The notes beneath the pieces were generated by a model. That model was not told the origin of the DNA, did not search any database, and saw only the letters and a program-made list of their open reading frames with translations. DNA of 64,000 bases from an uncultured delta proteobacterium (GTDB taxonomy: Bacteria; Myxococcota_A; Polyangia; Fen-1088). Positions 1,252 through 61,284 of this stretch are shown here, piece after piece. A program made the translations under genes and the position numbers. Within the stretch, counting starts at the first letter, position 1, and each line of letters opens with the position of its first letter. The stretch lies in NCBI GenBank assembly GCA_963767925.1, contig CAVYGB010000008.1, positions 1,504,001-1,568,000 on the forward strand. Reading direction: 5' to 3'.

Positions 1252-4200
1252 ATGGCCCGCGCCGGCTCTCCGTTCGTGACCGTCCGTGTACTGGGTTTCC
1301 TGGCTCTGCTGCTGTCCCAGCCCACGCAGGCGGTCTCCCCGCCCGCACCCACGTGGTTCGATCGCCTCTTCGAGCAGGAGCGGGCCGATCTCGCGCAGCG
1401 GGTGGGGCTCCCCGAAGCCGTCTCCTCGCTGTCGGCGCTGATCGCCCTCGAGGAGAACGTCGCCCCCGGCCGGCTGGAGGAGATCCTCCGCAGCACGGTG
1501 CAGGAGCCCCGCACCGATCCGCTGGTCGCGGCGCAGGCCAGTTACCGGCTCGCGCTGGCCGAGACCCGCCGCGGTGAGGTCGACTCGGCCCGGGCCCGCT
1601 ACCGGGCCATGGGCCTGGTGAGCGAGTTCCAGGTGGTGGGCCCCTTCGAGGCCCAGGGCCGGGGCGCGGTGGGCCGACCCTATGCGCCCGAGACCCCCGA
1701 GGGTGGGCCGGGACCCGACCGCCGCTTCGCCGGCAAGGAACGCGAGGTCACCTGGAGGCCCGCCCCCAACGTCCTGCGCGATGGCTCGCTCGCCCTCGAC
1801 GGCCTCCTGCGCCCGGACAGCGACGCCGTGGCCTACGCCCTGACCTACCTGCACAGCGAGCGCCGGCAGCCCATCGTGCTCCGGCTCGGCAGCCCAGGTC
1901 CGATCAAGGTGTGGGTACAGGGGAAGGTGGCGTTCGAAAAGAACGTCGTGCGCGATGTGCGGCTGGACCAGGACGCGGTGACCGTGCTGCTCGAGCCTGG
2001 CGAAAATGCCGTGCTCATCAAGACCGTCGTCACCAGCGGCGCCTGGCGCCTGTTCCTGAGAGTGACCGATCAGAAGGGACGCCCGCTGCCCAACCTGCGG
2101 GCGACCGCCGCCGGCGCCGCCTATCCGCTGGGCCCCGACCGCGGGCCCCGCGCGGGGGCTCCGCCCCGCGACCTCGGGGCGATCCTGCTGCAGCGGGCGA
2201 CGCGCAGCCCCGCCGCTGCTCGGGGGCCGGCCTGGCTCGACTACGCCCGCTACCTGGCGCTCTACCGGTCCACCGACCGCGAGGGCAAGGACCTCGAGCA
2301 GGCGCTCGATCAGGCGGCGCGGGCCGGAGCCGGCACCCGCGCCCTCCTGCTGCTGGGGGAGCTGGCCACCGAGCCCGACGACCGACGGCAGGCGCTCGAG
2401 CGCGCGGCGGCCGAGGCGACCGATCCCGAGGAGAAGGCGCTGGCGCTGGCCCAGCTCGGCCTGCTGGCCCGCGCCAGCCGCCGCGAGAGCGCAGGCCTGG
2501 AGCTGCTCCGCGCCGCGCTGGCCGCCGACCCCACCTGCGTGCCCGCGGTGCTGGCCCTCGCCGCCGAGGAGCAGCTCGCCGGCCTCCCCGCCGCCGGGCT
2601 GGCCCGCCTCGATACCCTGCCCGAGAACCTCCGGGTCCTGCCGATGGTGCGGGCGGCCCGGGCGCGGGCCCTGGAAGCCCTGGGCCGCCGGGCGGCGGCC
2701 GACCGCGAGCTGGCCATGTTGTTCGAGAGCCGCCAGACCGACGTCGAGCTGGGGCTGGACGTGGCCCGGGCGGCCCGCCTCGATGGCGACTCCCAGCGGG
2801 CGATCTTCCTGCACGCCAAGCTGGCCCGGCAGCGCCCCGATCTCTCCTTCATCGTGACCGAATGGGCCCGCCTCCTCGAGGGGGGCGGCGACATCCCGGG
2901 CGCCCGGCGCGTACTCGAGCAGGCCATCGAGCGGTTGCCCGACGAGGCGATCTTGCACGAGGAGCTGGGCCGCTTGCTGGTGCGAGCGGACGACCTCGAG
3001 GCGGGCGTCAAGCAGCTTCGCCAGGCGCTCACCCTGCGGCCGCAGAACCCCGTCCTGCGCCGGTACGTGGCCCGCCTGGCCAGCGACGCCGACGGCCGGC
3101 AGGGCGACGGCGGGGCCGACTGGGCCCGGAGCTGGGTGGAGGACGGCCGGGCCCTCGCCCGCAGCGCCCTCTCCGGCGCCGCGACCCAGGCGAGCGACGA
3201 CTCGGGGGCGGCGGTGCTTGTCGATCAGCAGGTCGTCCGGGTGCACGGCAACGGCCTCTCCGAGCGGTTCGCCCAGCGCCTCGTGCACGTCCGCACCGAG
3301 CAGGCCGCCCGGGAGCAGCTCGAGTTCCTGGTCCGCTACTCCCCCGGCACGCAGGAGGTGGAGATCCGGAGGGCCCAGATTTACCGGCGCGCCCCGGGCG
3401 GGGAGGTGCTCCTGTTGCAGGCGACCGGCCGCGACGATCGCGATCTATCGGAGCCCTGGTACGGCCTCTATTACGACCTGCGGGCCGAGGTGGTTGTGTT
3501 CGAGGGCCTGCGGGCGGGGGACGTGCTCGAGATCCAGTACGCCGTCTCCGACGTGTCTCCGGAAAATGCCCTCGCCGGCTACTTCGGGGACCTCGACTTC
3601 CTGGCCGAGACGGTGCCCCGCCAGCGCTGGCGCTACGTCCTGATCGGGCCAGCCGACCGGCGGTTCTTCTTCAACCGCCCGGGGGTGGCCGACCTGGAGT
3701 ACCGCGAGGAGCAGAAGGGCAACGAGGTGGTCTTCACCTTCGCCGCCCGCAACATCCCCCGGGTGGTCTCCGAGCCCGGCATGCCCGGGTACGCCGAGGT
3801 GTCGCCCTACCTGCACGTCAGCACCCACTCCGGCTGGCAGGAGATGGGCCGCTGGTACTGGAACCTGATCGAGGATCAGCTCTCCGCCGACAGCAACCTG
3901 ATCCGGGCGGCGACCGAGGCCACGGCTGGCGCCCGCACCGTGCTGGAGAAGGTCCGGGCCGTGCACCGCTTCGTGGTGGAGAACACCCGCTACGTCGCAC
4001 TAGAGTTCGGGATCCACGGCTACAAGCCCTACCGGGTCACCCAGGTGCTGTCGCGCCGCTTCGGCGACTGCAAGGACAAGGCCTCGCTGATGCTGGCCCT
4101 GCTGCGGGTGGTGGGCGTGCCCAGTGAGCTGGTCCTGCTCCGCACCCGGCAAGGGGGACGGGTCGAAGCGAGCCCCGCCTCCCTGGCGGTCTTCGACCAC

Positions 4201-5088
4201 GCCATCGTCTACGTGCCCGGGCTGGCCCTCTACCTCGACGGCACGGCGGAGTTCGCCGGGCTCGACGAGCTCCCCTTCCAGGACCAGGGGGTCACCGCCT
4301 TGCGGGTGGGCCCCCAGACCGCCGAGCTGGTGCTGACGCCGGTGATGCCGGCGGCCGCCAACCGGGCGGTTCGCCGCTGGCAGGCCAGCGTCGACGAGCA
4401 AGGCGGCGCCCGGGTGAGCGAGGAGATCGCGGTGAGCGGCCAGGCCGCCCCCGAGTGGCGCGAGCACTATCAGACCCCCGGCGAGCGGCAGGAGCGCTTC
4501 AGCAAGGTGTGGAGCGGCCGCTTCCCCGGCGCCCAGCTCGAGACGCTCGAGATCGACGGCCCCTCCGACCGCAACCGTCCGGTGGTGGCCCGCTCGGTGG
4601 CCCTGGTGCCCAAGCTGGCCGATCCGGCCGGGGCGGGCCGGCTCAAGCTGCCGGTCAGCGCCCGGGAGGAAGACTTCGTGCGTTCCTACGCCCGGCTGTC
4701 GCAGCGGCGCCACGAGCTCGTGCTGGCCTACCCCTGGCAACAGGAGCAGGAGCTGTCCTTCCGGGTCCCCGAGGGCTGGCAGGTCGAGGGGTTGCCCGCC
4801 CCCCGCCAGCTCGACTCCCAGTTCGGCCGCTTCCGCCAGGAGGTCGCCGTCTCCGACGACGGCCGGCACATGACGGTGCGTTCGCTGGTCGAGGTGGCGC
4901 AGAACCGCATCGCCCCCAAGGAGTACGGGGAGTTCCGGGCCTTCCTCGCGGTGCTCGATGGAGCCTTCCGGCAGACGGTGACCATCCGCAAGGAGGTCGC
5001 CGGATCCACCGAGCCGCCGGCCGAGAAGACCGAGCCCCGGCCCCTCGAGCCCGAAAAGCGCGACACCGGAACGGAGAGCCGCCAGTGA
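1252..5088 (+). CDS. Secreted TPR + DUF3857 + transglutaminase-like (+DUF3858-like) protein with intact Cys-His-Asp triad
   Basis: Signal peptide; TPR-like helices; GDVLEIQY (DUF3857 end); GDCKDKA, FDHAI, YLDGT motifs. Confidence 0.88.
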   Translation: MARAGSPFVTVRVLGFLALLLSQPTQAVSPPAPTWFDRLFEQERADLAQRVGLPEAVSSLSALIALEENVAPGRLEEILRSTVQEPRTDPLVAAQASYRLALAETRRGEVDSARARYRAMGLVSEFQVVGPFEAQGRGAVGRPYAPETPEGGPGPDRRFAGKEREVTWRPAPNVLRDGSLALDGLLRPDSDAVAYALTYLHSERRQPIVLRLGSPGPIKVWVQGKVAFEKNVVRDVRLDQDAVTVLLEPGENAVLIKTVVTSGAWRLFLRVTDQKGRPLPNLRATAAGAAYPLGPDRGPRAGAPPRDLGAILLQRATRSPAAARGPAWLDYARYLALYRSTDREGKDLEQALDQAARAGAGTRALLLLGELATEPDDRRQALERAAAEATDPEEKALALAQLGLLARASRRESAGLELLRAALAADPTCVPAVLALAAEEQLAGLPAAGLARLDTLPENLRVLPMVRAARARALEALGRRAAADRELAMLFESRQTDVELGLDVARAARLDGDSQRAIFLHAKLARQRPDLSFIVTEWARLLEGGGDIPGARRVLEQAIERLPDEAILHEELGRLLVRADDLEAGVKQLRQALTLRPQNPVLRRYVARLASDADGRQGDGGADWARSWVEDGRALARSALSGAATQASDDSGAAVLVDQQVVRVHGNGLSERFAQRLVHVRTEQAAREQLEFLVRYSPGTQEVEIRRAQIYRRAPGGEVLLLQATGRDDRDLSEPWYGLYYDLRAEVVVFEGLRAGDVLEIQYAVSDVSPENALAGYFGDLDFLAETVPRQRWRYVLIGPADRRFFFNRPGVADLEYREEQKGNEVVFTFAARNIPRVVSEPGMPGYAEVSPYLHVSTHSGWQEMGRWYWNLIEDQLSADSNLIRAATEATAGARTVLEKVRAVHRFVVENTRYVALEFGIHGYKPYRVTQVLSRRFGDCKDKASLMLALLRVVGVPSELVLLRTRQGGRVEASPASLAVFDHAIVYVPGLALYLDGTAEFAGLDELPFQDQGVTALRVGPQTAELVLTPVMPAAANRAVRRWQASVDEQGGARVSEEIAVSGQAAPEWREHYQTPGERQERFSKVWSGRFPGAQLETLEIDGPSDRNRPVVARSVALVPKLADPAGAGRLKLPVSAREEDFVRSYARLSQRRHELVLAYPWQQEQELSFRVPEGWQVEGLPAPRQLDSQFGRFRQEVAVSDDGRHMTVRSLVEVAQNRIAPKEYGEFRAFLAVLDGAFRQTVTIRKEVAGSTEPPAEKTEPRPLEPEKRDTGTESRQ

Positions 5089-53722: not shown

Positions 53723-54076
53723 GGGTGGGTCAAGGTCCGGGGCGCACGCCGACCTCCGCTGCGGAGTTCGAGCTTCTCTCCAGCGTGATGCAGAGCTGGC
53801 CGGGGGGATTGGGGACGCTGGTGAGTGGAGAGGGGCCGGGCTGGGCGTGAAACTGGGGCCACGGACGCCTCCGCAGAACCGCGGACGCACGAACCGCGAT
53901 CCGATCGGCTTTTCGGCGAGGCATATAATGCACCAGCTACTGAAAGAAGCGGCACGTGGCACGACGTACTCTTCCCGACCATCCTGACCTCGAAGAGGTC
54001 TTCAACTGATTGCGTCGCCGCTCGCGATCGGAACGTTCGGGGCCTCGAGTGGCAAATCCCTCACCGAAAGTCGCAA

Positions 54077-54451
54077 ATGGACCATATTGGATTGATCGTT
54101 TCCGACGTGGAAGGTGCCAAGACCTTTTACAGGGCTTGCCTTTCGACGCTGGGCTGGGAGTTCCGTGACTACGGTGATCGCGGCGGCGTCTTTCGCAACA
54201 GCGGAAGTCCTCCCTTCTACGTAACCCCCGGGGCCGTCGACGCATCTGGGGCCCACTTCGCGTTTCGTGCCTCGTCCCGTGAACAGGTCGAAAACTTCCA
54301 TCGGGCGGCCATCATGCAGGGCGCGACAGACAACGGCGCCCCAGGATTGCGACCGGATTATGCCCAAGGCTACTACGCGGCGTTTGTCTTGGACGCCAAC
54401 AGAAACAACCTCGAAGCGGTTTATTACGAAGCCAAGGACGGCGACGGATAG
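54077..54451 (+). CDS. VOC/glyoxalase family protein
   Basis: DHIGLIVSD, FY, HFAFRA, GATDNGAPGLRPDY..GYYAAFVLD..NNLEAV; visibly lower GC. Confidence 0.92.
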   Translation: MDHIGLIVSDVEGAKTFYRACLSTLGWEFRDYGDRGGVFRNSGSPPFYVTPGAVDASGAHFAFRASSREQVENFHRAAIMQGATDNGAPGLRPDYAQGYYAAFVLDANRNNLEAVYYEAKDGDG

Positions 54452-54594
54452 CGAACGTTGGCCGCGCGCGCCGTTCGATCGTCGTGACCGTGGACGGCCG
54501 GTGGCGTCGTCGTCACGCTCGAGCGATTCGCAAAGGCGAGTCACCTGGCGCGGGTCAGCCCCAGCACCTCCGCGCCTACGACCAGGGCCCGACT

Positions 54595-54622
54595 AGTTGA
54601 CATAATATCTCTTATCGGACAC
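54595..54622 (-). other. dif-like XerC/XerD recombination site
   Basis: Minus strand GTGTCCGATAA-GAGATA-TTATGTCAACT; 11-6-11 layout, XerD arm 9/11 and XerC arm 6/11 identical to E. coli dif. Confidence 0.88.
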
Positions 54623-54686
54623 CTCGACTGTGGCAGCTAAGTAAGGAATGTCCGCGTAAGCGTCGCGTCAGATACAAGCGGCGGGC

Positions 54687-55862
54687 ATGGAGAAGCCCCC
54701 GGAGCTGGTCACGATGAGCACGAAAGAGATCGACCGGCTGGAGGTCATTCGGCGCGTGCTGGAGCACGGTCTCAAGCGAAGGAAGGCGGCTCAGCTGCTC
54801 GGAATCACGAGCCGGCAGGTGTGGCGGCTGTGCGAGACGTACAAGAGCGAAGGCCCAGCTGGGCTGGCGTCGAAGCGCCGAGGCCGTCCCAGCAATCGCC
54901 GCCTGTGGCAGGACCTGGAGAAGCGAACCGTCGAGCTCGTCCGAGAGCTATACGGCGACTTCGGGCCGACGCTGGCCCGGGAAGGCACCAACGGGCTCGG
55001 CCAGGGCGTGACCCAGTTCGGGCGGGCCCTGTCGGAGCTCAACATCGACAGCATCTGCGCGAACACGCCTCAGGCCAAAGGCCGGGTCGAGCGGATGAAT
55101 TCAACGCTGCAAGACCGGCTGGTGAAGAAGCTGCGCCTCCAGGGCATCAGCACCATGGAGGCCGGCAACGCCTTCGCGCCCAAGTACATGGAGGACTTCA
55201 ACCGCCGATTCGCCAAGCCGCCCCGCAACCCGCACGACGCGCACCGCCCCGTCGACGAAAAGGTGCTCGAGGACGTCTTTGCCTGGCGCGAGGAGCGCCG
55301 AATGACCCGCAATCTCGTTGTCCACTTCAAGCGCGTCTCGTACCTGGTCGAGCCGACACCCGAAGCGCTGAAACTCGGGGGCCAGAAGGTGCAGGTTCGC
55401 GAGTGGCAGGACTGGAGTGTCGAGATCAGCTGCGATGGAGTCCCCCTGCCCTACGCGGCCGTTGACAAGCAGCCTCACGTCGCGCCCGGGGACATCGTCG
55501 ACAATAAGCGCCTCGGCGCCATCCTCGTGACGATCCAGGACATGCAGACGAAGCGGGACGAGGCGCGACTCGCCTCGCCGAAGGTGAAGCTTGCGGACAA
55601 GGAGCGGCTCCGGGCCAAGCGCCTCGCCATGCTCAAGGAGAAGGCCTTGAAGGCCAAGGAGCCTCGACCCGCGCATCCTCCCAAGGTGGTGCGGCCCGAG
55701 CGAATCACGCTCGCTGGCGTCGACCCCAACAGCCCAGTTCAAGCGTTCCTCGATCGGTTCGCCGTCGAGCAGGCCGAGCGCCGGCGCAAGTACAACGAGG
55801 CGGGCAACGACCGCACGCGGGCCCGTGAGTTCATGGACGCACGCAGTCGACCGACCAGCTGA
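54687..55862 (+). pseudogene. IS1202/ISNCY transposase with in-frame deletion of most of the DDE core
   Basis: HTH (MSTKEIDRLEVI..RQVWRL), DFGPTLARE joined to TQFGRALSELNI..ANTPQAKGRVER..TLQDRL; QIDG/DD/YSD segment absent. Confidence 0.85.
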
Positions 55863-55902
55863 GCAGTCGGAGGCCTGGCCAACCTTCGATGAGGCCACCA
55901 AA

Positions 55903-55995
55903 TGTGATCACCACTGGTTCGACTCTCGCGGGCCGGCGTGCGCTCTGCGCGTCTCTGTCGACGACGCAAAGACGGAGTCGGCGTTTGCGCATCTC
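55903..55995 (+). pseudogene. Degenerate fragment of the IS1202 transposase catalytic core
   Basis: CDHHWFDSRGPACALRVSVDDAK-TESAFAH matches the recalled family pattern DGS.H.WFE.RGP.C.LL..VDDAT..ES. Confidence 0.7.
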
Positions 55996-56194
55996 GGTCA
56001 TCGCGAACGCCGCGATCGGAGCATCGAGGACGGAGCGATCGGACCATTGTGAATGGGGGTCTGGTTGGAGCGAAGCGACGCTGAGAAGCGGACGTCTCTA
56101 CTTTAGCCGTAACAGACATGTAATAGCCGAAAGTGTACCTTTTACCCACTGTGCCCGTCCCCCCCCCCGGCTCGGAGTGACCAGGAACGCAACC

Positions 56195-58621
56195 ATGATG
56201 AACGACCTGCGCTACGCTTTTCGCCAGCTCGTCCGCGCGCCCGGCTTCTCGGCGCTCGCGCTTCTGACCATCGCCCTCGGCATCGGCGCCTGCACGGCCA
56301 TCTTCTCGGTGGTCTCGGGCGTGCTGCTGCGGCCGCTGCCCTATCCGGAATCCGACCGCCTGGTGGTGGTCCGCGAGACCAACTTTCCCAAGTTGCCCGA
56401 GTTCTCGGTGGCGCCGGGACAGTACTTTTCCTGGGTCGCGCAGTCTCGCAGCTGGGAGAGCCTCACCGCGGTCCGCCGCGCCTCCTACAACCTGACCGGA
56501 CGGGGCGAGCCTCAGCGGCTCCTGGGTCGCCGCGTGACCGCGAACTTTCTGCGCACGTTGCGGGTGGCGCCAGCGCTGGGGCGGGATCTCTCCCCCGAGG
56601 ACGAGGTGCCGGGTCACGAGCGGGTAGCCATCGTTAGTCACGGTTTCTGGCAGCGGCAGTTCGGCGGCCGGCCCGATGTGCTGGGGCAGACCATGCAGCT
56701 GGACGGTCAGCCGTTCACGATCGTGGGGGTCATGCCCGCCTCGTTTGGCTGGGTCGGGAAGGGCGTCGTGCCGCAGCCGGGCGCCCGCGCCGACCTCTAC
56801 ACGCCCGCCGCCTACACCGCCGACGAGCGCGGGCAACACGGGGCCCACTACATCGGCGTGTTCGGCCGCCTCAAGACGGGCGTCACCCTCGATCAGGCCC
56901 GCGCCGAAATGACGGTCATCGCCGATCGTCTGGCCAAGCAGCTCCCCGACACCAACAAGGGCTGGGGGGTAAAGCTGACGCCGATGCTGGAATCGGACGT
57001 GGGCGAAGCGCGGCCGGTGCTGCTGGCGCTCCTGGGCGCGGTCGGCTTTCTGCTCCTCATCGCCTGCGCCAACGTCGCCAACCTGCTCCTGATGCGGGCC
57101 ACGGCCCGCAGCAAGGAGATCGCCGTCCGGGGCGCTCTCGGCGCCGGACGCGCCCGGATCGTGCAACAGCTGCTCACCGAGAGCGTGGTGCTGTCACTGC
57201 TGGGCGGGCTGCTCGGGCTGGCCGTGGCCAAGGGCGGGCTGGGCGCGCTGCTGGCGCTCGCGTCGGAGACCCTGCCGCGCGCCGGTGAGGTCTCGGTCGA
57301 CCTGAGCGCGCTCGGTTTTTCAGTCGGGCTCGCTCTGATCACCGGCGTCATCTTCGGGCTGGTGCCCGCCGTCCAGATCACCCGCCTGGACCTGCAGCAG
57401 ACCCTGAAGCAGGGCGGGCGCGGTTCCACCGAGGGCGTCGCCCGGCACCGCCTGCACGGCGCACTGGTGGTCGCGGAGCTAGCCATCGCCCTGGTGCTGC
57501 TGGTCGGTGCCGGCCTGCTGATGCGCAGCTTCGTGCACCTGCAGCGGGTCGACGTTGGCTTCCGTCCGGAGAACGCCTTCGCCGTCGCCCTGCAATTGTC
57601 CGAGAAGAAATACGAGACCCCCTCGCAGAAAGTGTCCTTCGAGCAGCAGGCCAGCCGACGCCTGGCGGCTATCCCGGGCGTGTCGGCCGTGGGCGCCGCC
57701 CACGTGGTCCCGCTTTCGGGACCGGACCACAACCTAATCTTCACGATCAAGGGCCAGCCGCCCATCGCCCCGTCGGATCTACCGAGCACCAACTATTACG
57801 CCGCCAGCGGCGGCTACTTCCAGGCGATGGGCATCGGTCTCGTGCGCGGGCGCTTCTTTGCTGGCACCGACACCGCCGCTTCGGAGCCGGTGGCCATCAT
57901 CAACGAATCGATGTCCCGCAAGCATTTCCCGGGTGAAGATCCGATCGGCAGGTTCATCAATGTCACGGGCGATTCCGACAAGTGGCTGCGGATCGTCGGC
58001 GTCGTCCGGGACGTGCGCCAGTACGACCTGCACAGTGACGTCACTGAGCAGACGTACGAACCGCTGGCTCAGAACCCATTCGAGCTCCTGACGTTCATCG
58101 TGCGCACCTCCGGCGGCAGCGCCGGCCTGCCCGCCGCCATCCGCCGCGCCATGTACGACGTGGACCGCGACCAGCCGATCGCCACCATCCGTCCGCTGCA
58201 GGAACTGGTGGACGGAGCGATGGCCCGCCAGCGCTTCGCCACGTCGCTGTTCTCGGTCTTCTCGGCCACGGCGCTGCTACTCGCCGCCATCGGCATCTAC
58301 GGGGTGATGGCCTATTCCGTGCGCCTGCGGACCGGCGAGATCGGGGTACGCATCGCCCTCGGCGCCGGCAGCGGCGACGTCCTGGGCCTGGTCTTTCGCC
58401 AGGGCGGCCGCCTGCTGGCGCTTGGGCTGGCCGCGGGGATCGCGGGTGCGCTGGTGCTGACCCGCGTCCTCTCGACCCTCTTCTTCGGCGTCAGCGCCCA
58501 CGACCCGCTCACCTTCGCCGCCATCGCCGCGCTCCTCACCGTCACCGCCGCCCTGGCCTGCCTCTTCCCCGCCCGCCGGGCGATCGCCATCGATCCCATG
58601 ACCGCCTTGCGGTCGGAGTGA
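56195..58621 (+). CDS. Duplicated MacB-type ABC permease (ADOP-like), no ATPase partner
   Basis: DLRYAFRQL..APGF, LLRPLPY, LLIACANVANLLL, RSKEIAVRGALGAG, EIGVRIALGA, PARRA..DPMTALRSE. Confidence 0.93.
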   Translation: MMNDLRYAFRQLVRAPGFSALALLTIALGIGACTAIFSVVSGVLLRPLPYPESDRLVVVRETNFPKLPEFSVAPGQYFSWVAQSRSWESLTAVRRASYNLTGRGEPQRLLGRRVTANFLRTLRVAPALGRDLSPEDEVPGHERVAIVSHGFWQRQFGGRPDVLGQTMQLDGQPFTIVGVMPASFGWVGKGVVPQPGARADLYTPAAYTADERGQHGAHYIGVFGRLKTGVTLDQARAEMTVIADRLAKQLPDTNKGWGVKLTPMLESDVGEARPVLLALLGAVGFLLLIACANVANLLLMRATARSKEIAVRGALGAGRARIVQQLLTESVVLSLLGGLLGLAVAKGGLGALLALASETLPRAGEVSVDLSALGFSVGLALITGVIFGLVPAVQITRLDLQQTLKQGGRGSTEGVARHRLHGALVVAELAIALVLLVGAGLLMRSFVHLQRVDVGFRPENAFAVALQLSEKKYETPSQKVSFEQQASRRLAAIPGVSAVGAAHVVPLSGPDHNLIFTIKGQPPIAPSDLPSTNYYAASGGYFQAMGIGLVRGRFFAGTDTAASEPVAIINESMSRKHFPGEDPIGRFINVTGDSDKWLRIVGVVRDVRQYDLHSDVTEQTYEPLAQNPFELLTFIVRTSGGSAGLPAAIRRAMYDVDRDQPIATIRPLQELVDGAMARQRFATSLFSVFSATALLLAAIGIYGVMAYSVRLRTGEIGVRIALGAGSGDVLGLVFRQGGRLLALGLAAGIAGALVLTRVLSTLFFGVSAHDPLTFAAIAALLTVTAALACLFPARRAIAIDPMTALRSE

Positions 58622-58699
58622 GGACGGTCATGGCGGGCGGGCGCCTCGCTCGGGACCACTATGATCGTCCCCGCCGTCGTAGGAGGCCGGAGCCGACCC

Positions 58700-58895
58700 C
58701 ATGAACCGGCCAAGCGCCGCGGCCGGCCTCCCAAGGATGCCTCCCGAGTCGTTCTCGCCGGCGTGGACCCTCGCGGCCCCGTCCAAGCGTTCCTCGATCG
58801 CTTCGCCGTCGAACAGGCAGAGCGTCGAAGGAAACAAAACACCAAGAGCAACGATCGGAAGCTTGAGCGGGAGTTTGCTGCTGCCAAAGCCCGCG
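58700..58895 (+). pseudogene. Second, diverged copy of the transposase C-terminal tail
   Basis: LAGVDPRGPVQAFLDRFAVEQAERRRK vs LAGVDPNSPVQAFLDRFAVEQAERRRK at 55710-55790. Confidence 0.85.
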
Positions 58896-58980
58896 GCTCA
58901 GAACGGCACCCCCTCGGTGCGGCGCTGCTGACCCACAAGGACGCGTCGCATCCATGACCGGGGCATGACGACGATTTTCT

Positions 58981-59008
58981 GGAACCCGCGGGCGGGGTGC
59001 TGCGTGAA
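58981..59008 (+). promoter_or_regulatory. Putative ECF-type autoregulated promoter
   Basis: GGAACC-N16-CGTG just upstream of the ECF ATG (59019). Confidence 0.6.
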
Positions 59009-59018
59009 AGAGGCGAAA

Positions 59019-59621
59019 ATGGTGACGCTCCAGCCCACGGCCGACGCGCCCGGCGCGTCCGGTGAGCTCGACGAGATCACCCTCGCGCGCGCGCAGAAGG
59101 GGGAGCGGGTGGCGTGGGCCGCGCTGGTCGCGCACCACCAGGGCGCGGTCTTTGCGCTGATCTCTCGCATCCTCGGCCGCCGCCGCGGCAGCGCGGCCCA
59201 TCAGGACCTGGCGCAAGAGACGTTCCTGCGCGTATTCCGCGCCCTGCCCACCTTCGAGCGCAGGGGGCCGGCCCGGCTGTCGACCTGGATCCTGACCATC
59301 GCGACGCGGCTGGCCATCTCCGAGCTGCGGCGCCGACCGGTGGAGTACCTGCTGCCCGTCGACGTCGCCGATCCGGCGGCGCCGGACGACGGCGGCGCCG
59401 CGCGGCGCGGGCTGGCGCGGGCGCTGGAGAAAGCGATGGGCGAGCTGGCCGCGCCCTACCGCGCAGCCTTCGTGCTGCGCGAGCTGCACGATCTGTCACA
59501 CGAGGAGATCGCGAGGGCGCTGGACATTCCGGTAGGCACGGTCAAGTCGCGCCTGTCGCGCGCGCGGCAGGAGCTGGCGTCGGCGCTGCGCGATCTCGAG
59601 GGAGGCGGCAAGCATGGCTGA
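59019..59621 (+). CDS. ECF RNA polymerase sigma factor
   Basis: DLAQETFLRVF, LSTWILTIA, FVLRELHDLSHEEIA..L..PVGTVKSRLSRAR. Confidence 0.95.
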   Translation: MVTLQPTADAPGASGELDEITLARAQKGERVAWAALVAHHQGAVFALISRILGRRRGSAAHQDLAQETFLRVFRALPTFERRGPARLSTWILTIATRLAISELRRRPVEYLLPVDVADPAAPDDGGAARRGLARALEKAMGELAAPYRAAFVLRELHDLSHEEIARALDIPVGTVKSRLSRARQELASALRDLEGGGKHG

Positions 59622-60999
59622 TAAGCCGACGGACGACGGTCTCGACCCCCGCTACCGCGAGGTGTGGAGGCCGGCGGCACCGCCGACGGGCTTCGTCGAT
59701 CGCGTGCTCGCGCTGACGGACGCCGAGGGGAGCGTGGCGGCGCGCAAGCGGCGATCGCTGTTCGGGCGCGGCGCCATCGCGATGGCGGTGCTGGCGGCGG
59801 CCGCCGCTCTGGTCATCGGCTATCGGCCGCGCGCGCGCGAGGGGGAGCATTTGGCGACGACCGCCCGCCTCTCGGTCCCGATCACCGAGCAAGCGGCGGC
59901 CGTGCTCGAGCCGCGCGCGCACCTGCGCTGGCGGTCGGCCGACGGTCGCGTGACCGTCGAGCAGGACGCCGGCGAGGTCTTTTATCGCGTCGACCGCGGC
60001 GTGGCCTTCGAGGTGAAGACGGCGGCGGGGTCGGTGCTGGTGAAGGGAACCTGTTTCAAAGTGGAGGTGAACGCGATGAGCCCGATTACTCACACTCTCA
60101 TCGGCGTCGTGTCGGGCATCGCGATCACCGCGTTGGCGGTGACGGTGTATGAAGGGATGGTCGAGGTGCACAACGAGCGCGGCGAGACCCGCCTCGGCCC
60201 GGGCGACCGCGGCGTGGCCGAGCCGGGCCAGGCCCCGACCGTGGCCCGGCCTGCGGGCGCCGCGCGGGCGAGCAACGTCCTCCGCCTGAGCGACGCGACT
60301 CTGGCGGCGCTCGGCGCGGACACGCGCGCCACCATCGCGGCCCTCGAGCAGAAGGCGGCGGCCCTCTCGTCCGAGCTGGCGGAGGCGCGGCGCCTGGTGC
60401 TGGAGGGGCCGCCCGACGAGGACGGCATCCCCAAGAAGAAGATTCACGACTTCACGCCCGAGGAGCTGGCCGTTCTCGCCCGTCGCTGCGAGATCCGCTA
60501 CGACGTGCCCAAGTTCCTCAGCAACGGCCGGATCGAGCTCAGAGGCCTTGGCGAGGCCAGCAACGGCATCAGCGAGGCGCAGGTGGCGCAGCTCAATCAG
60601 CACCTGCGGGAGTTCGCGCCCGACAACCTGGACCGCCTGCGCGCACTCTACCGGGAAGGGACAGGCGATCACGTCGGCGCCGCGACGCTGGCTCCGAAGG
60701 TCATGACGCAGGCCCTCTTCAAGCGCTACCCGCACGAGCTCGACCGCGCCCAGCAGCGTCTGTCGCTGGAGCGCGCTGGGCAGCCGGCGCCGCCGCCTGA
60801 TCCCGGCGGACCGAGCGTGGTCGAACGGCTGCTGCGATTGATCTTCGCCGCCGGCGACGAGTTGGAGCGACGGGGCGCGCAGGTGCTCGGCGCCGAGCGC
60901 ACCCACGAGCTGCGCCGCACGGGCGCAGGCTACGAGCCCGGCCTCATCCAGTATGGCTGCCCGAATGGTTCGACCTCGCGAATACTCGGCGCAGAGTAG
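59614..60999 (+). CDS. FecR-domain anti-sigma factor
   Basis: Overlaps sigma; PPTGFVDRV, TM, GEVFYRV..FEVKTAAG.V.VKGTCFKV, VYEG.VEV, LGPGD. Confidence 0.85.
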   Translation: MADKPTDDGLDPRYREVWRPAAPPTGFVDRVLALTDAEGSVAARKRRSLFGRGAIAMAVLAAAAALVIGYRPRAREGEHLATTARLSVPITEQAAAVLEPRAHLRWRSADGRVTVEQDAGEVFYRVDRGVAFEVKTAAGSVLVKGTCFKVEVNAMSPITHTLIGVVSGIAITALAVTVYEGMVEVHNERGETRLGPGDRGVAEPGQAPTVARPAGAARASNVLRLSDATLAALGADTRATIAALEQKAAALSSELAEARRLVLEGPPDEDGIPKKKIHDFTPEELAVLARRCEIRYDVPKFLSNGRIELRGLGEASNGISEAQVAQLNQHLREFAPDNLDRLRALYREGTGDHVGAATLAPKVMTQALFKRYPHELDRAQQRLSLERAGQPAPPPDPGGPSVVERLLRLIFAAGDELERRGAQVLGAERTHELRRTGAGYEPGLIQYGCPNGSTSRILGAE

Positions 61000-61236
61000 A
61001 CGACGAGCGATCCTCCTGCCGCGCGGCAGCCGGCCCGGCGATGGTAGTACCAGGCGCAGCGCCACGCCATGGCCGCGAGCAGCAGCAGCCAGAGGACGTA
61101 GATGCCGAGGAGGCCGGTCTTGTGGCGCACGATCGCGGCGGCGAGGCCGAGGGCGTAGAAGGGACGAGGTGGAACAAGAAGGGGACGCGGCCGAAGATCG
61201 GAGCGTGGGCGAACACACTAGCCAGTCTCCCAACCG

Positions 61237-61284
61237 GACATTTCAACTTTGCTCAGAAGCAGACATTTCAACTTTGCCGTGACA
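61237..61284 (+). mobile_element. Well-preserved IS1202-type right end
   Basis: GACATTTCAACTTTGC twice (61237-52, 61262-77) followed by CGTGACA. Confidence 0.82.

Follow-up and report, generated by a model that had tools for sequence, protein, structure and literature searches.

Both Siguier et al. (bioRxiv 10.1101/2022.12.17.520857) and Harmer, Pong and Hall (PMC10132070) place the left end of the targeted elements 5–6 bp (or 3–5 bp) from the XerC arm and report one constant orientation. Both describe a TnsB-like DDE enzyme, the staggered cut of which generates a duplication of 5–6 bp, a family hallmark in the form of Q (not K or R) seven residues after the catalytic E, and passenger genes carried between transposase and right end in ISKpn21, ISKpn65 and ISRel10. 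The preprint adds that the C found at left-end position 9 is subgroup-specific, that 4 of 61 targeted copies have no duplication, that the site-proximal copy is the newest one in stacked arrays, and that the hosts of the subgroup are mainly gamma-, beta- and some alpha-proteobacteria (bioRxiv 10.1101/2022.12.17.520857). Target sites beside ISBcen27 and its relatives are given in Table 8 of PMC10132070, and the 28-mer described below is of the same kind. Full-text literature searches, judged by their listings and abstracts, brought up no report of dif targeting by this subgroup outside Pseudomonadota; such hosts may be listed in Supplementary Table 1 of the preprint. The sequence-only reading of the DNA studied here had taken oriented insertion 5–6 bp from the XerC arm as established for an ISAba32/ISAjo2-like subgroup of IS1202, and both sources bear this out (PMC10132070; bioRxiv 10.1101/2022.12.17.520857).

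The locus considered here belongs to a stretch of 64 kb, which was analysed as a whole and is called the window below. Placement of its element at the side of a dif-type site is the behaviour published in 2022–2023 for ISAba32, ISAjo2, ISKpn21 and ISBcen27, and the copy in the window is a degenerate further case. With the elements of ISBcen27/ISKpn21 type found at chromosomal dif it shares the family, with sister clades in the tree, as well as the TGT...ACA tips, the left end 5–6 bp from the XerC arm, the orientation and the occurrence in arrays at a single site. The differences are an amino acid identity of only about 40–44% for the ORF in the window (48–53% for P0002, its nearest full-length relative), a C-terminal extension of about 70 aa in the clade of the window, and the hosts, which are Pseudomonadota for the described elements and Myxococcota, Gemmatimonadota and Acidobacteriota for the readable members of this clade; besides, the window copy is dead and lacks a duplication. 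At pdif sites of Acinetobacter plasmids, ISAjo2 and ISAba32 follow the same targeting rule and carry a second inner transposase-binding repeat at each end, which in the window is seen in IRR2. They are elements of 1.48 kb with intact transposases of 441–457 aa, 5-bp duplications and plasmid dif modules, whereas the window has just one site, on the chromosome, with a 6-bp spacer and no module. TGT/ACA tips, repeated internal transposase-binding sites and insertion beside an essential site are also common to Tn7 with its TnsB (PMC10132070). Unlike Tn7, the window contains none of the partners TnsA, TnsC, TnsD and TnsE, the transposase being its only IS-related gene. IMEX, for example phages of CTX type, integrate at dif by XerCD recombination, within the site, and become flanked by two dif-type sites. 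They share with the present element the chromosomal address, whereas in the window the site is single and a DDE-type element, bounded by inverted repeats, lies outside the XerC arm.

Anatomy of the dif-type site and the adjoining ends

The directly established anatomy of the locus is collected in Table 1, where IS-A denotes the unit next to the site and IS-B the one further to the right.

Table 1. Features at and to the right of the dif-type site (coordinates within the 64-kb window)
Feature	Position	Strand	Details
dif-type XerCD site, 28-mer	54595–54622	−	9/9 core positions
XerD-type arm	54595–54605		plus strand reads AGTTGACATAA
Central region	54606–54611		plus strand reads TATCTC
XerC-type arm	54612–54622		plus strand reads TTATCGGACAC; abuts IS
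Spacer between XerC arm and IS tip, 6 bp	54623–54628		CTCGAC; expected place of a target duplication copy
Left inverted repeat (IRL) of IS-A	54629–54655	+	TGT tip 54629–54631; C at position 9; AATGTCC inner motif
Transposase remnant ORF, 391 aa	54687–55862	+	NCBIfam NF033594
Transposase catalytic-domain scrap	55903–55995	+	after the stop codon, other frame; homologue residues ~152–192, 10-aa gap
Right inverted repeat 1 (IRR1)	56088–56114	+	ends ...GTAACA, then GACATG
ADOP-family duplicated permease gene, intact, 808 aa	56195–58621	+	TIGR03434, 983.6 bits, full profile
IS-B transposase C-terminal scrap, ~84 aa, diverged	58661–58957	+	direct repeat D1, 73%; tblastn, blastx
ECF-type sigma factor gene	58965–59621	+	Pfam; GC3 0.90
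FecR-like gene	59614–60999	+	Pfam; GC3 0.89
Right end 2 (IRR2)	61227–61284	+	ends ...GTGACA, then GTCACG; canonical two-site family architecture
IRR2 inner repeat	61227–61251	+	direct repeat family D5
IRR2 terminal repeat	61252–61284	+	direct repeat family D5

The dif-type 28-mer is intergenic. Scans of the window with a minimum of 14 matches in the 22 arm positions and with a minimum of 8 in the 9 core positions detected no other dif-like site. Its minus strand reads GTGTCCGATAA-GAGATA-TTATGTCAACT, that is XerC-type arm, 6-bp centre and XerD-type arm, so that the XerC-type arm faces the TGT tip of the element from a distance of 6 bases. The letters thereby confirm what had been noticed before, namely that the XerC-side arm ends at 54622 and is followed by CTCGAC and by TGT at 54629. 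A search with the XerD arm, two mismatches being allowed, returned two other matches versus 1.1 expected by chance, neither of them with a partner arm, and a second or inverted dif-like site, sought since the relative L001 has one, was found nowhere in the 64 kb. The window is chromosomal, containing trpE/D/C, mutL, miaA, accA, thyX and gpsA and belonging to a 3.3-Mb contig. Its GC content of 70–75% and its ADOP permease hint at a host outside Pseudomonadota. No sign of a replication terminus and no flip at 54.6 kb appeared in the GC-skew profile of the 64 kb; counts of oriented motifs and of de novo skewed 6–8-mers over the same length gave no usable terminus signal and no polarity flip at 54.6 kb, and no usable signal came from the polarity of GGGNAGGG there, which we take to be a KOPS-type motif. 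Members of the tyrosine-recombinase family were absent both from the 83 ORFs of at least 220 aa up to 47.4 kb and from the 19 ORFs to the right of 47.3 kb, and an Rfam scan of the whole window returned nothing. The 28-mer is perfect while everything beside it is decayed, which fits selection on the site, a putative dif of the chromosome.

IS ends were spotted by eye by way of the direct-repeat family D5, since automated repeat searches did not pair them, and the pairing was then confirmed by an inverted-match scan. IRL begins with TGTGGCAGC, the sequence from 54629 onwards being TGTGGCAGCTAAGTAAGGAATGTCC, and it possesses the position-9 C of the ISAba32 subgroup. Its best inverted match in the window is IRR1, with 18 of 27 nucleotides; of approximately 128,000 positions no other attains this level, and the next best inverted match reaches 16. 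The second inner repeat, which relatives carry in their left ends, is not recognisable in IRL, being absent or decayed, and from tip to start codon the distance falls about 25 nt short of the 83 nt in L002, consistent with one repeat lost. In IRR2 the two repeats (61227–61251 versus 61252–61276) are 84% identical. With a profile built from the ends of relatives IRR2 gives scores of 27.5 and 13.5 bits, the former for the end at 61284; over 41–45 nt this end is 91–93% identical to those of relatives from Cupriavidus and Burkholderia. The ends of IS-A perform poorly with the same ungapped profiles (−4.7 for IRL, and below 6 bits for both IRL and IRR1). Tip and inner motif are separated by 24 nt in IRL and IRR1 versus 23 nt in IRR2 and in the family. 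The three ends correspond to the terminal repeats of the IS1202 family, which are imperfect, about 24–26 bp long and have TGT/ACA tips. The sequence-only reading, which saw one IS with two right ends and regarded TGT at 54629 as the opening of an inverted repeat of both, is confirmed with one refinement. The two right ends exist and the pairing holds for the one at 56114, the best in the window, while the one at 61284 is the end of IS-B with its own 23-nt spacing, and instead of one IS, no fewer than three copies, belonging to two types, have left remains here. One more inverted repeat (54549–54574 / 58441–58466, pair I7; 26 nt, 85% complementary) was dropped, as a rough estimate puts the chance expectation at about 0.5 pairs of this kind.

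A target duplication had been declared missing after both right ends, those followed by GACATG and GTCACG, and later rearrangement or old age had been offered as the reason. Both statements stood. The string ACA+CTCGAC is absent from the window, ACA+TCGAC occurs once, inside the transposase gene and at chance level, and the spacer is repeated neither after 56114 nor after 61284; rearrangement, for its part, is visible as the internal deletion of about 123 aa in the transposase and as scraps of further copies. Duplications of 3–6 bp characterise the subgroup; since none survives here, direct documentation of the insertion is lacking. GAC, with which the spacer closes, occurs again immediately after the 56114 end (54623–54628 versus 56115–56120). 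For each end the probability of this by chance is approximately 1 in 64, and with a distance of 6 bp one would not normally expect a duplication of 3 bp.

Transposase remnants, their family and the genes in between

The 391-aa ORF scored 258.7 bits with the ISNCY_2 model NF033594 (cut-off 250), in two stretches and notwithstanding its deletion, and 48.8 bits with the IS481 model (cut-off 224), so that membership of the transposase in the IS1202/ISNCY family (NF033594) is established directly. Its nearest relatives are metagenomic proteins of 513–519 aa with 66–69% identity. Compared with them about 123 aa are missing as one in-frame block, corresponding to homologue residues ~99–220, and the first two catalytic D residues are inside this block. 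What remains is the HTH N-terminus and the C-terminal two-thirds with E135 and Q142, Q being located seven residues after the catalytic E as is characteristic for the family; the signature fits, and the enzyme is not whole, as the DDE triad is incomplete. In Pfam the ORF matched HTH domains only, with no match to an rve-type or any other catalytic domain. Loss of the catalytic core is a direct observation, and since the lost block contained the first two catalytic aspartates, the transposase is incapable of activity and IS-A is dead. The ORF forms one open frame with coding-like GC3 of 0.86, and the neighbouring scraps have 0.70–0.74. Two unrelated homologues, P0050 (417 aa) and P0104 (307 aa), have also lost an internal block of the catalytic N-half; such truncation may stem from decay that happened repeatedly, from ascertainment during gene calling, or from the existence of a shortened form with a function.

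For the phylogenetic placement, a tree of 88 transposases was rooted on ISEsa1, with four short rows (L003, L042, L054, L067) left out. The named members, taken from plasmid records, were ISKpn21, a member of the ISAba32 family, ISRel26, ISLad2 and ISEsa1, the last of which is outside the short-duplication group (Harmer, Pong and Hall, PMC10132070). The window transposase falls into a clade of 15 rows (SH-aLRT 99) that is sister (97) to a clade comprising ISKpn21 and elements of Burkholderiaceae; ISRel26, ISLad2 and the ISAba32-family member fall outside these two clades. Besides the window, the 15 rows comprise metagenomic proteins and loci from assemblies of Myxococcota, Gemmatimonadota and Acidobacteriota. 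The tree contains no members of the long-duplication subgroups (ISTde1, IS1202), names of which were absent among the plasmid matches listed, and within it the window nests among named members with short duplications. Exclusion from the long-duplication subgroups is based, therefore, on identity and indels and not on topology. P0002 is 48–53% identical to the named short-duplication members, to be compared with a between-group identity of 25–36% in Table 7 of PMC10132070. Aligned with four named members of the subgroup, it shows gaps of only 1–3 aa in the region that marks the subgroups and lacks the indels of the other two subgroups; in the ORF of the window most of this insert region is deleted. 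Judged by these sequence comparisons, IS-A most probably belongs to the ISAba32 (short-duplication) subgroup of the IS1202 family, and the same high confidence extends to the whole explanation preferred below. The sequence-only reading had proposed a placement in an IS1202 phylogeny, and the outcome agrees with what it suggested, the transposase nesting among the short-duplication members ISKpn21, ISRel26, ISAba32 and ISLad2 in a tree free of long-duplication ones.

Between the stop codon of this ORF and the 56114 end, the scrap at 55903–55995 gave 58.5% identity with P0002 over 41 aa (tblastn, E=8e-10) and matched the transposase genes of 18 relatives by blastn. By its sequence it is probably what remains of a second tandem copy. 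The scrap of IS-B is only 73–77% identical in nucleotides to its counterpart in the ORF of IS-A, which is why two IS types are distinguished. Further IS scraps were sought at 58.9–61.2 kb with blastx and blastn, and none were found. Read in this way, the region represents two types of IS by what is left of three copies or more, and it can no longer move.

The genes enclosed by these remnants are host-like in their third-position GC. GC3 is 0.895 for the ADOP permease and 0.89–0.90 for the three genes including sigma and FecR, versus 0.90–0.94 in housekeeping genes, and proteins of ADOP, sigma, FecR, glyoxalase and FAD-monooxygenase had no tblastn match in the 78 related loci described below. 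An intact ADOP gene amid remnants is not predicted by simple stacking at one site. The ECF sigma/FecR pair may be either passengers of IS-B or native genes, and IS-B as a transporter IS carrying this pair is a possibility. About 10 C residues occupy 56160–56170, approximately 25 bp upstream of the ADOP start codon, in an AT-richer stretch after the 56114 end. A 21-nt inverted repeat with 95% complementarity (pair I4) connects the interior of ADOP (57674–57694) with the start region of the sigma gene (59033–59053); being GC-rich, it is possibly due to chance. On the other side of the dif-type site, to its left, a glyoxalase-family ORF (53825–54451) has GC3 of 0.67 versus about 0.9 elsewhere and may be foreign DNA or a miscalled frame.

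dif adjacency in related loci

Using an alignment of 24 homologues, one genome per species was scanned, which gave 78 related loci with 49–67% identity. The left flank could be evaluated in 54 of them, and 24 were dropped because the gene was at the locus edge (6), the left end at the contig start (10), or the left end not found or truncated (8). With the dif core defined as CATAA-N6-TTAT and a threshold of at least 8 of 9 positions, a core precedes the TGT tip in 36 of the 54 loci, at 5 bp in 30 and at 6 bp in 6, and represents 34 distinct sites. All nine positions match in 31 loci, eight in 5, seven in 7, six in 5 and five or fewer in 6. The background rate of such a core ending 4–7 bp before a given point is 0.00049 (184,398 positions sampled in the 78 loci). 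Adjacency to dif is, thus, directly established for the relatives, and the tabulation of distances that the sequence-only reading had asked for comes out in its favour. Two of the low scorers, L058 and L073, are inner members of arrays in which the first copy abuts dif, and L011 is an inner copy too, its array running off the locus start. In L037, one of the dropped rows, a core of 8/9 at 5 bp can be recognised by eye.

Matching target duplications were found in 23 of the 54 loci (5 bp in 22, 6 bp in 1) with a crude right-end finder, and they abut TGT and ACA directly. Conservation among the relatives is confined to the part inside TGT; the 28-mers outside differ, the 34 sites having different central regions. 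Two or three head-to-tail copies are present in 13 of the 78 loci. A textbook example of stacking is seen at L073:1650–6500, with three tandem copies of one IS, ATTGG at each junction and the first copy 5 bp from a dif-type site.

In the clade of the window the picture is less uniform. Only one of six readable loci, L002, has a canonical core, which makes the window the second canonical dif case in its clade. Scores of the others are 6 of 9 for L001, 7 for L005 and for L007, 5 for L006 and 4 for L031; the sites of L001, L005 and L007 are deviant and still recognisable, and there are none in L006 and L031. The loci L005 and L007 (4868–4900 in both) have the same deviant 28-mer, AGTTAACGGAA GACCTG TTATGCGTCGG, followed by GCCGC and the same IS, and are located about 70 kb apart on one contig of a Vicinamibacterales MAG. 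Since they share this 28-mer, the clade must make use of repeated, non-canonical sites as well. A MAG contig represents the closest genomic relative (L001:4841–8012). On it two different IS1202-family elements stand head to tail and are centred in a 49-nt inverted repeat with 88% complementarity, each arm of which contains a dif-like 28-mer with its XerC-type arm inward; by its appearance the target is a palindrome or a dif module. L031:2064–4642, from a Gemmatimonadota MAG and of the same clade, is a transporter IS of 2579 bp with no clear dif-type site on its left and with an ORF for an APH-family phosphotransferase (3489–4532) between the transposase and a right end of two repeats.

Proposed history of the locus and competing readings

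We consider it very probable that the window preserves a fossil of repeated site-directed transposition beside an XerCD site by IS1202-family elements of the ISAba32 subgroup. Such elements insert their transposase-proximal end 5–6 bp outside the XerC arm and leave the site intact, and according to the proposal made in the literature they would be targeted by sensing XerC bound to the site. Since target sites differ in sequence, it is XerC on its site, rather than DNA alone, that should be recognised, as the literature thinks. New copies would land between the site and older copies, so that arrays build outward. For the window this suggests that IS-B came first and that copies of IS-A arrived later, nearer to the site. 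The youngest unit, IS-A (54629–56114), may have originated as a fusion of two tandem copies through at least three deletions, and it would consist of a copy with in-frame deletion of the catalytic N-half to which a second copy has contributed the scrap and its right end. IS-B would be an older, different unit, of which the C-terminal scrap and the two-site right end are left (58661–58957 and 61227–61284). Later deletions may have taken the catalytic core, the inner junctions and the target duplication, and the elements are immobile now. The order of arrivals, the deletions and the XerC-mediated recognition are what we infer for the window.

The same remnants may be viewed as parts of a single large transporter element of 6.66 kb (54629–61284), with ADOP and the sigma/FecR pair as passengers and with the 56114 end and the scraps as debris inside it. 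This reading, which we hold to be unlikely, makes use of the existence of transporter IS with passengers both in the subgroup (ISKpn21, ISKpn65, ISRel10) and in the clade of the window (L031), of the intact two-site IRR2 and of the start of the sigma gene only 8 bp after the stop codon of the IS-B scrap. It is contradicted by the absence of a duplication after 61284 (CTCGAC versus GTCACG), by the different spacing in IRR2 (23 nt) and in IRL/IRR1 (24 nt), and by the divergence of the IS-B scrap from IS-A (73–77% identity), which implies two IS types; in addition, ADOP, sigma and FecR have host-like GC3 (0.89–0.90), and a search through the flanks of the IS in the 78 loci detected no homologue of any of the three. 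A still less probable explanation, for which we see hardly any room, is that the adjacency arose by chance or that the dif-like sequence is a part of the element rather than its target. With the target duplication absent, the outer boundary does rest on TGT and on comparison with relatives. In these relatives, however, conservation is found inside TGT, 34 distinct 28-mers lie outside it and duplications directly abut TGT/ACA, and the chance rate is only about 0.0005.

A doubt that deserves more weight concerns the nature of the 28-mer itself, which the IS would mark equally well if it were an accessory or decayed XerCD-like site (xrs) and not the site of dimer resolution of the chromosome. Relatives in the same clade do occupy sites that occur twice in one genome, as in L005/L007 about 70 kb apart and in the two inverted copies of L001, and at 54.6 kb no flip is seen in skew or in motif polarity. 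On the other hand, the site is canonical (9/9 core), intergenic and unique in 64 kb, and the window is chromosomal, with its set from trpE/D/C and mutL to gpsA on a contig of 3.3 Mb. We regard an xrs as possible and rather doubtful.

Within the preferred history of repeated insertion and decay, the element leaves the known mechanism unchanged and extends the host range modestly. It adds an independent clean example of the XerC-side rule of ISAba32-type elements in a deep clade, the readable members of which come from assemblies of Myxococcota, Gemmatimonadota and Acidobacteriota. IS ends of this kind may be a cheap marker for dif-type sites in poorly studied high-GC genomes, and the locus illustrates long-term occupancy of a dif address, where the site stays perfect and adjoining elements decay and pile up.

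Finally, there is a slight chance, which we consider quite improbable, that the 391-aa ORF is a retained catalytically dead derivative and/or that the dif-targeting clade ferries host-type genes to the terminus region. Such a derivative could keep, to judge by the preserved segments, the N-terminus that binds DNA together with the C-terminal part, to which targeting is attributed. If so, the protein might occupy the left end next to dif and there prevent additional insertions or affect XerCD. For ferrying, the cargo would be the ECF sigma/FecR pair here and the APH-family kinase in L031.
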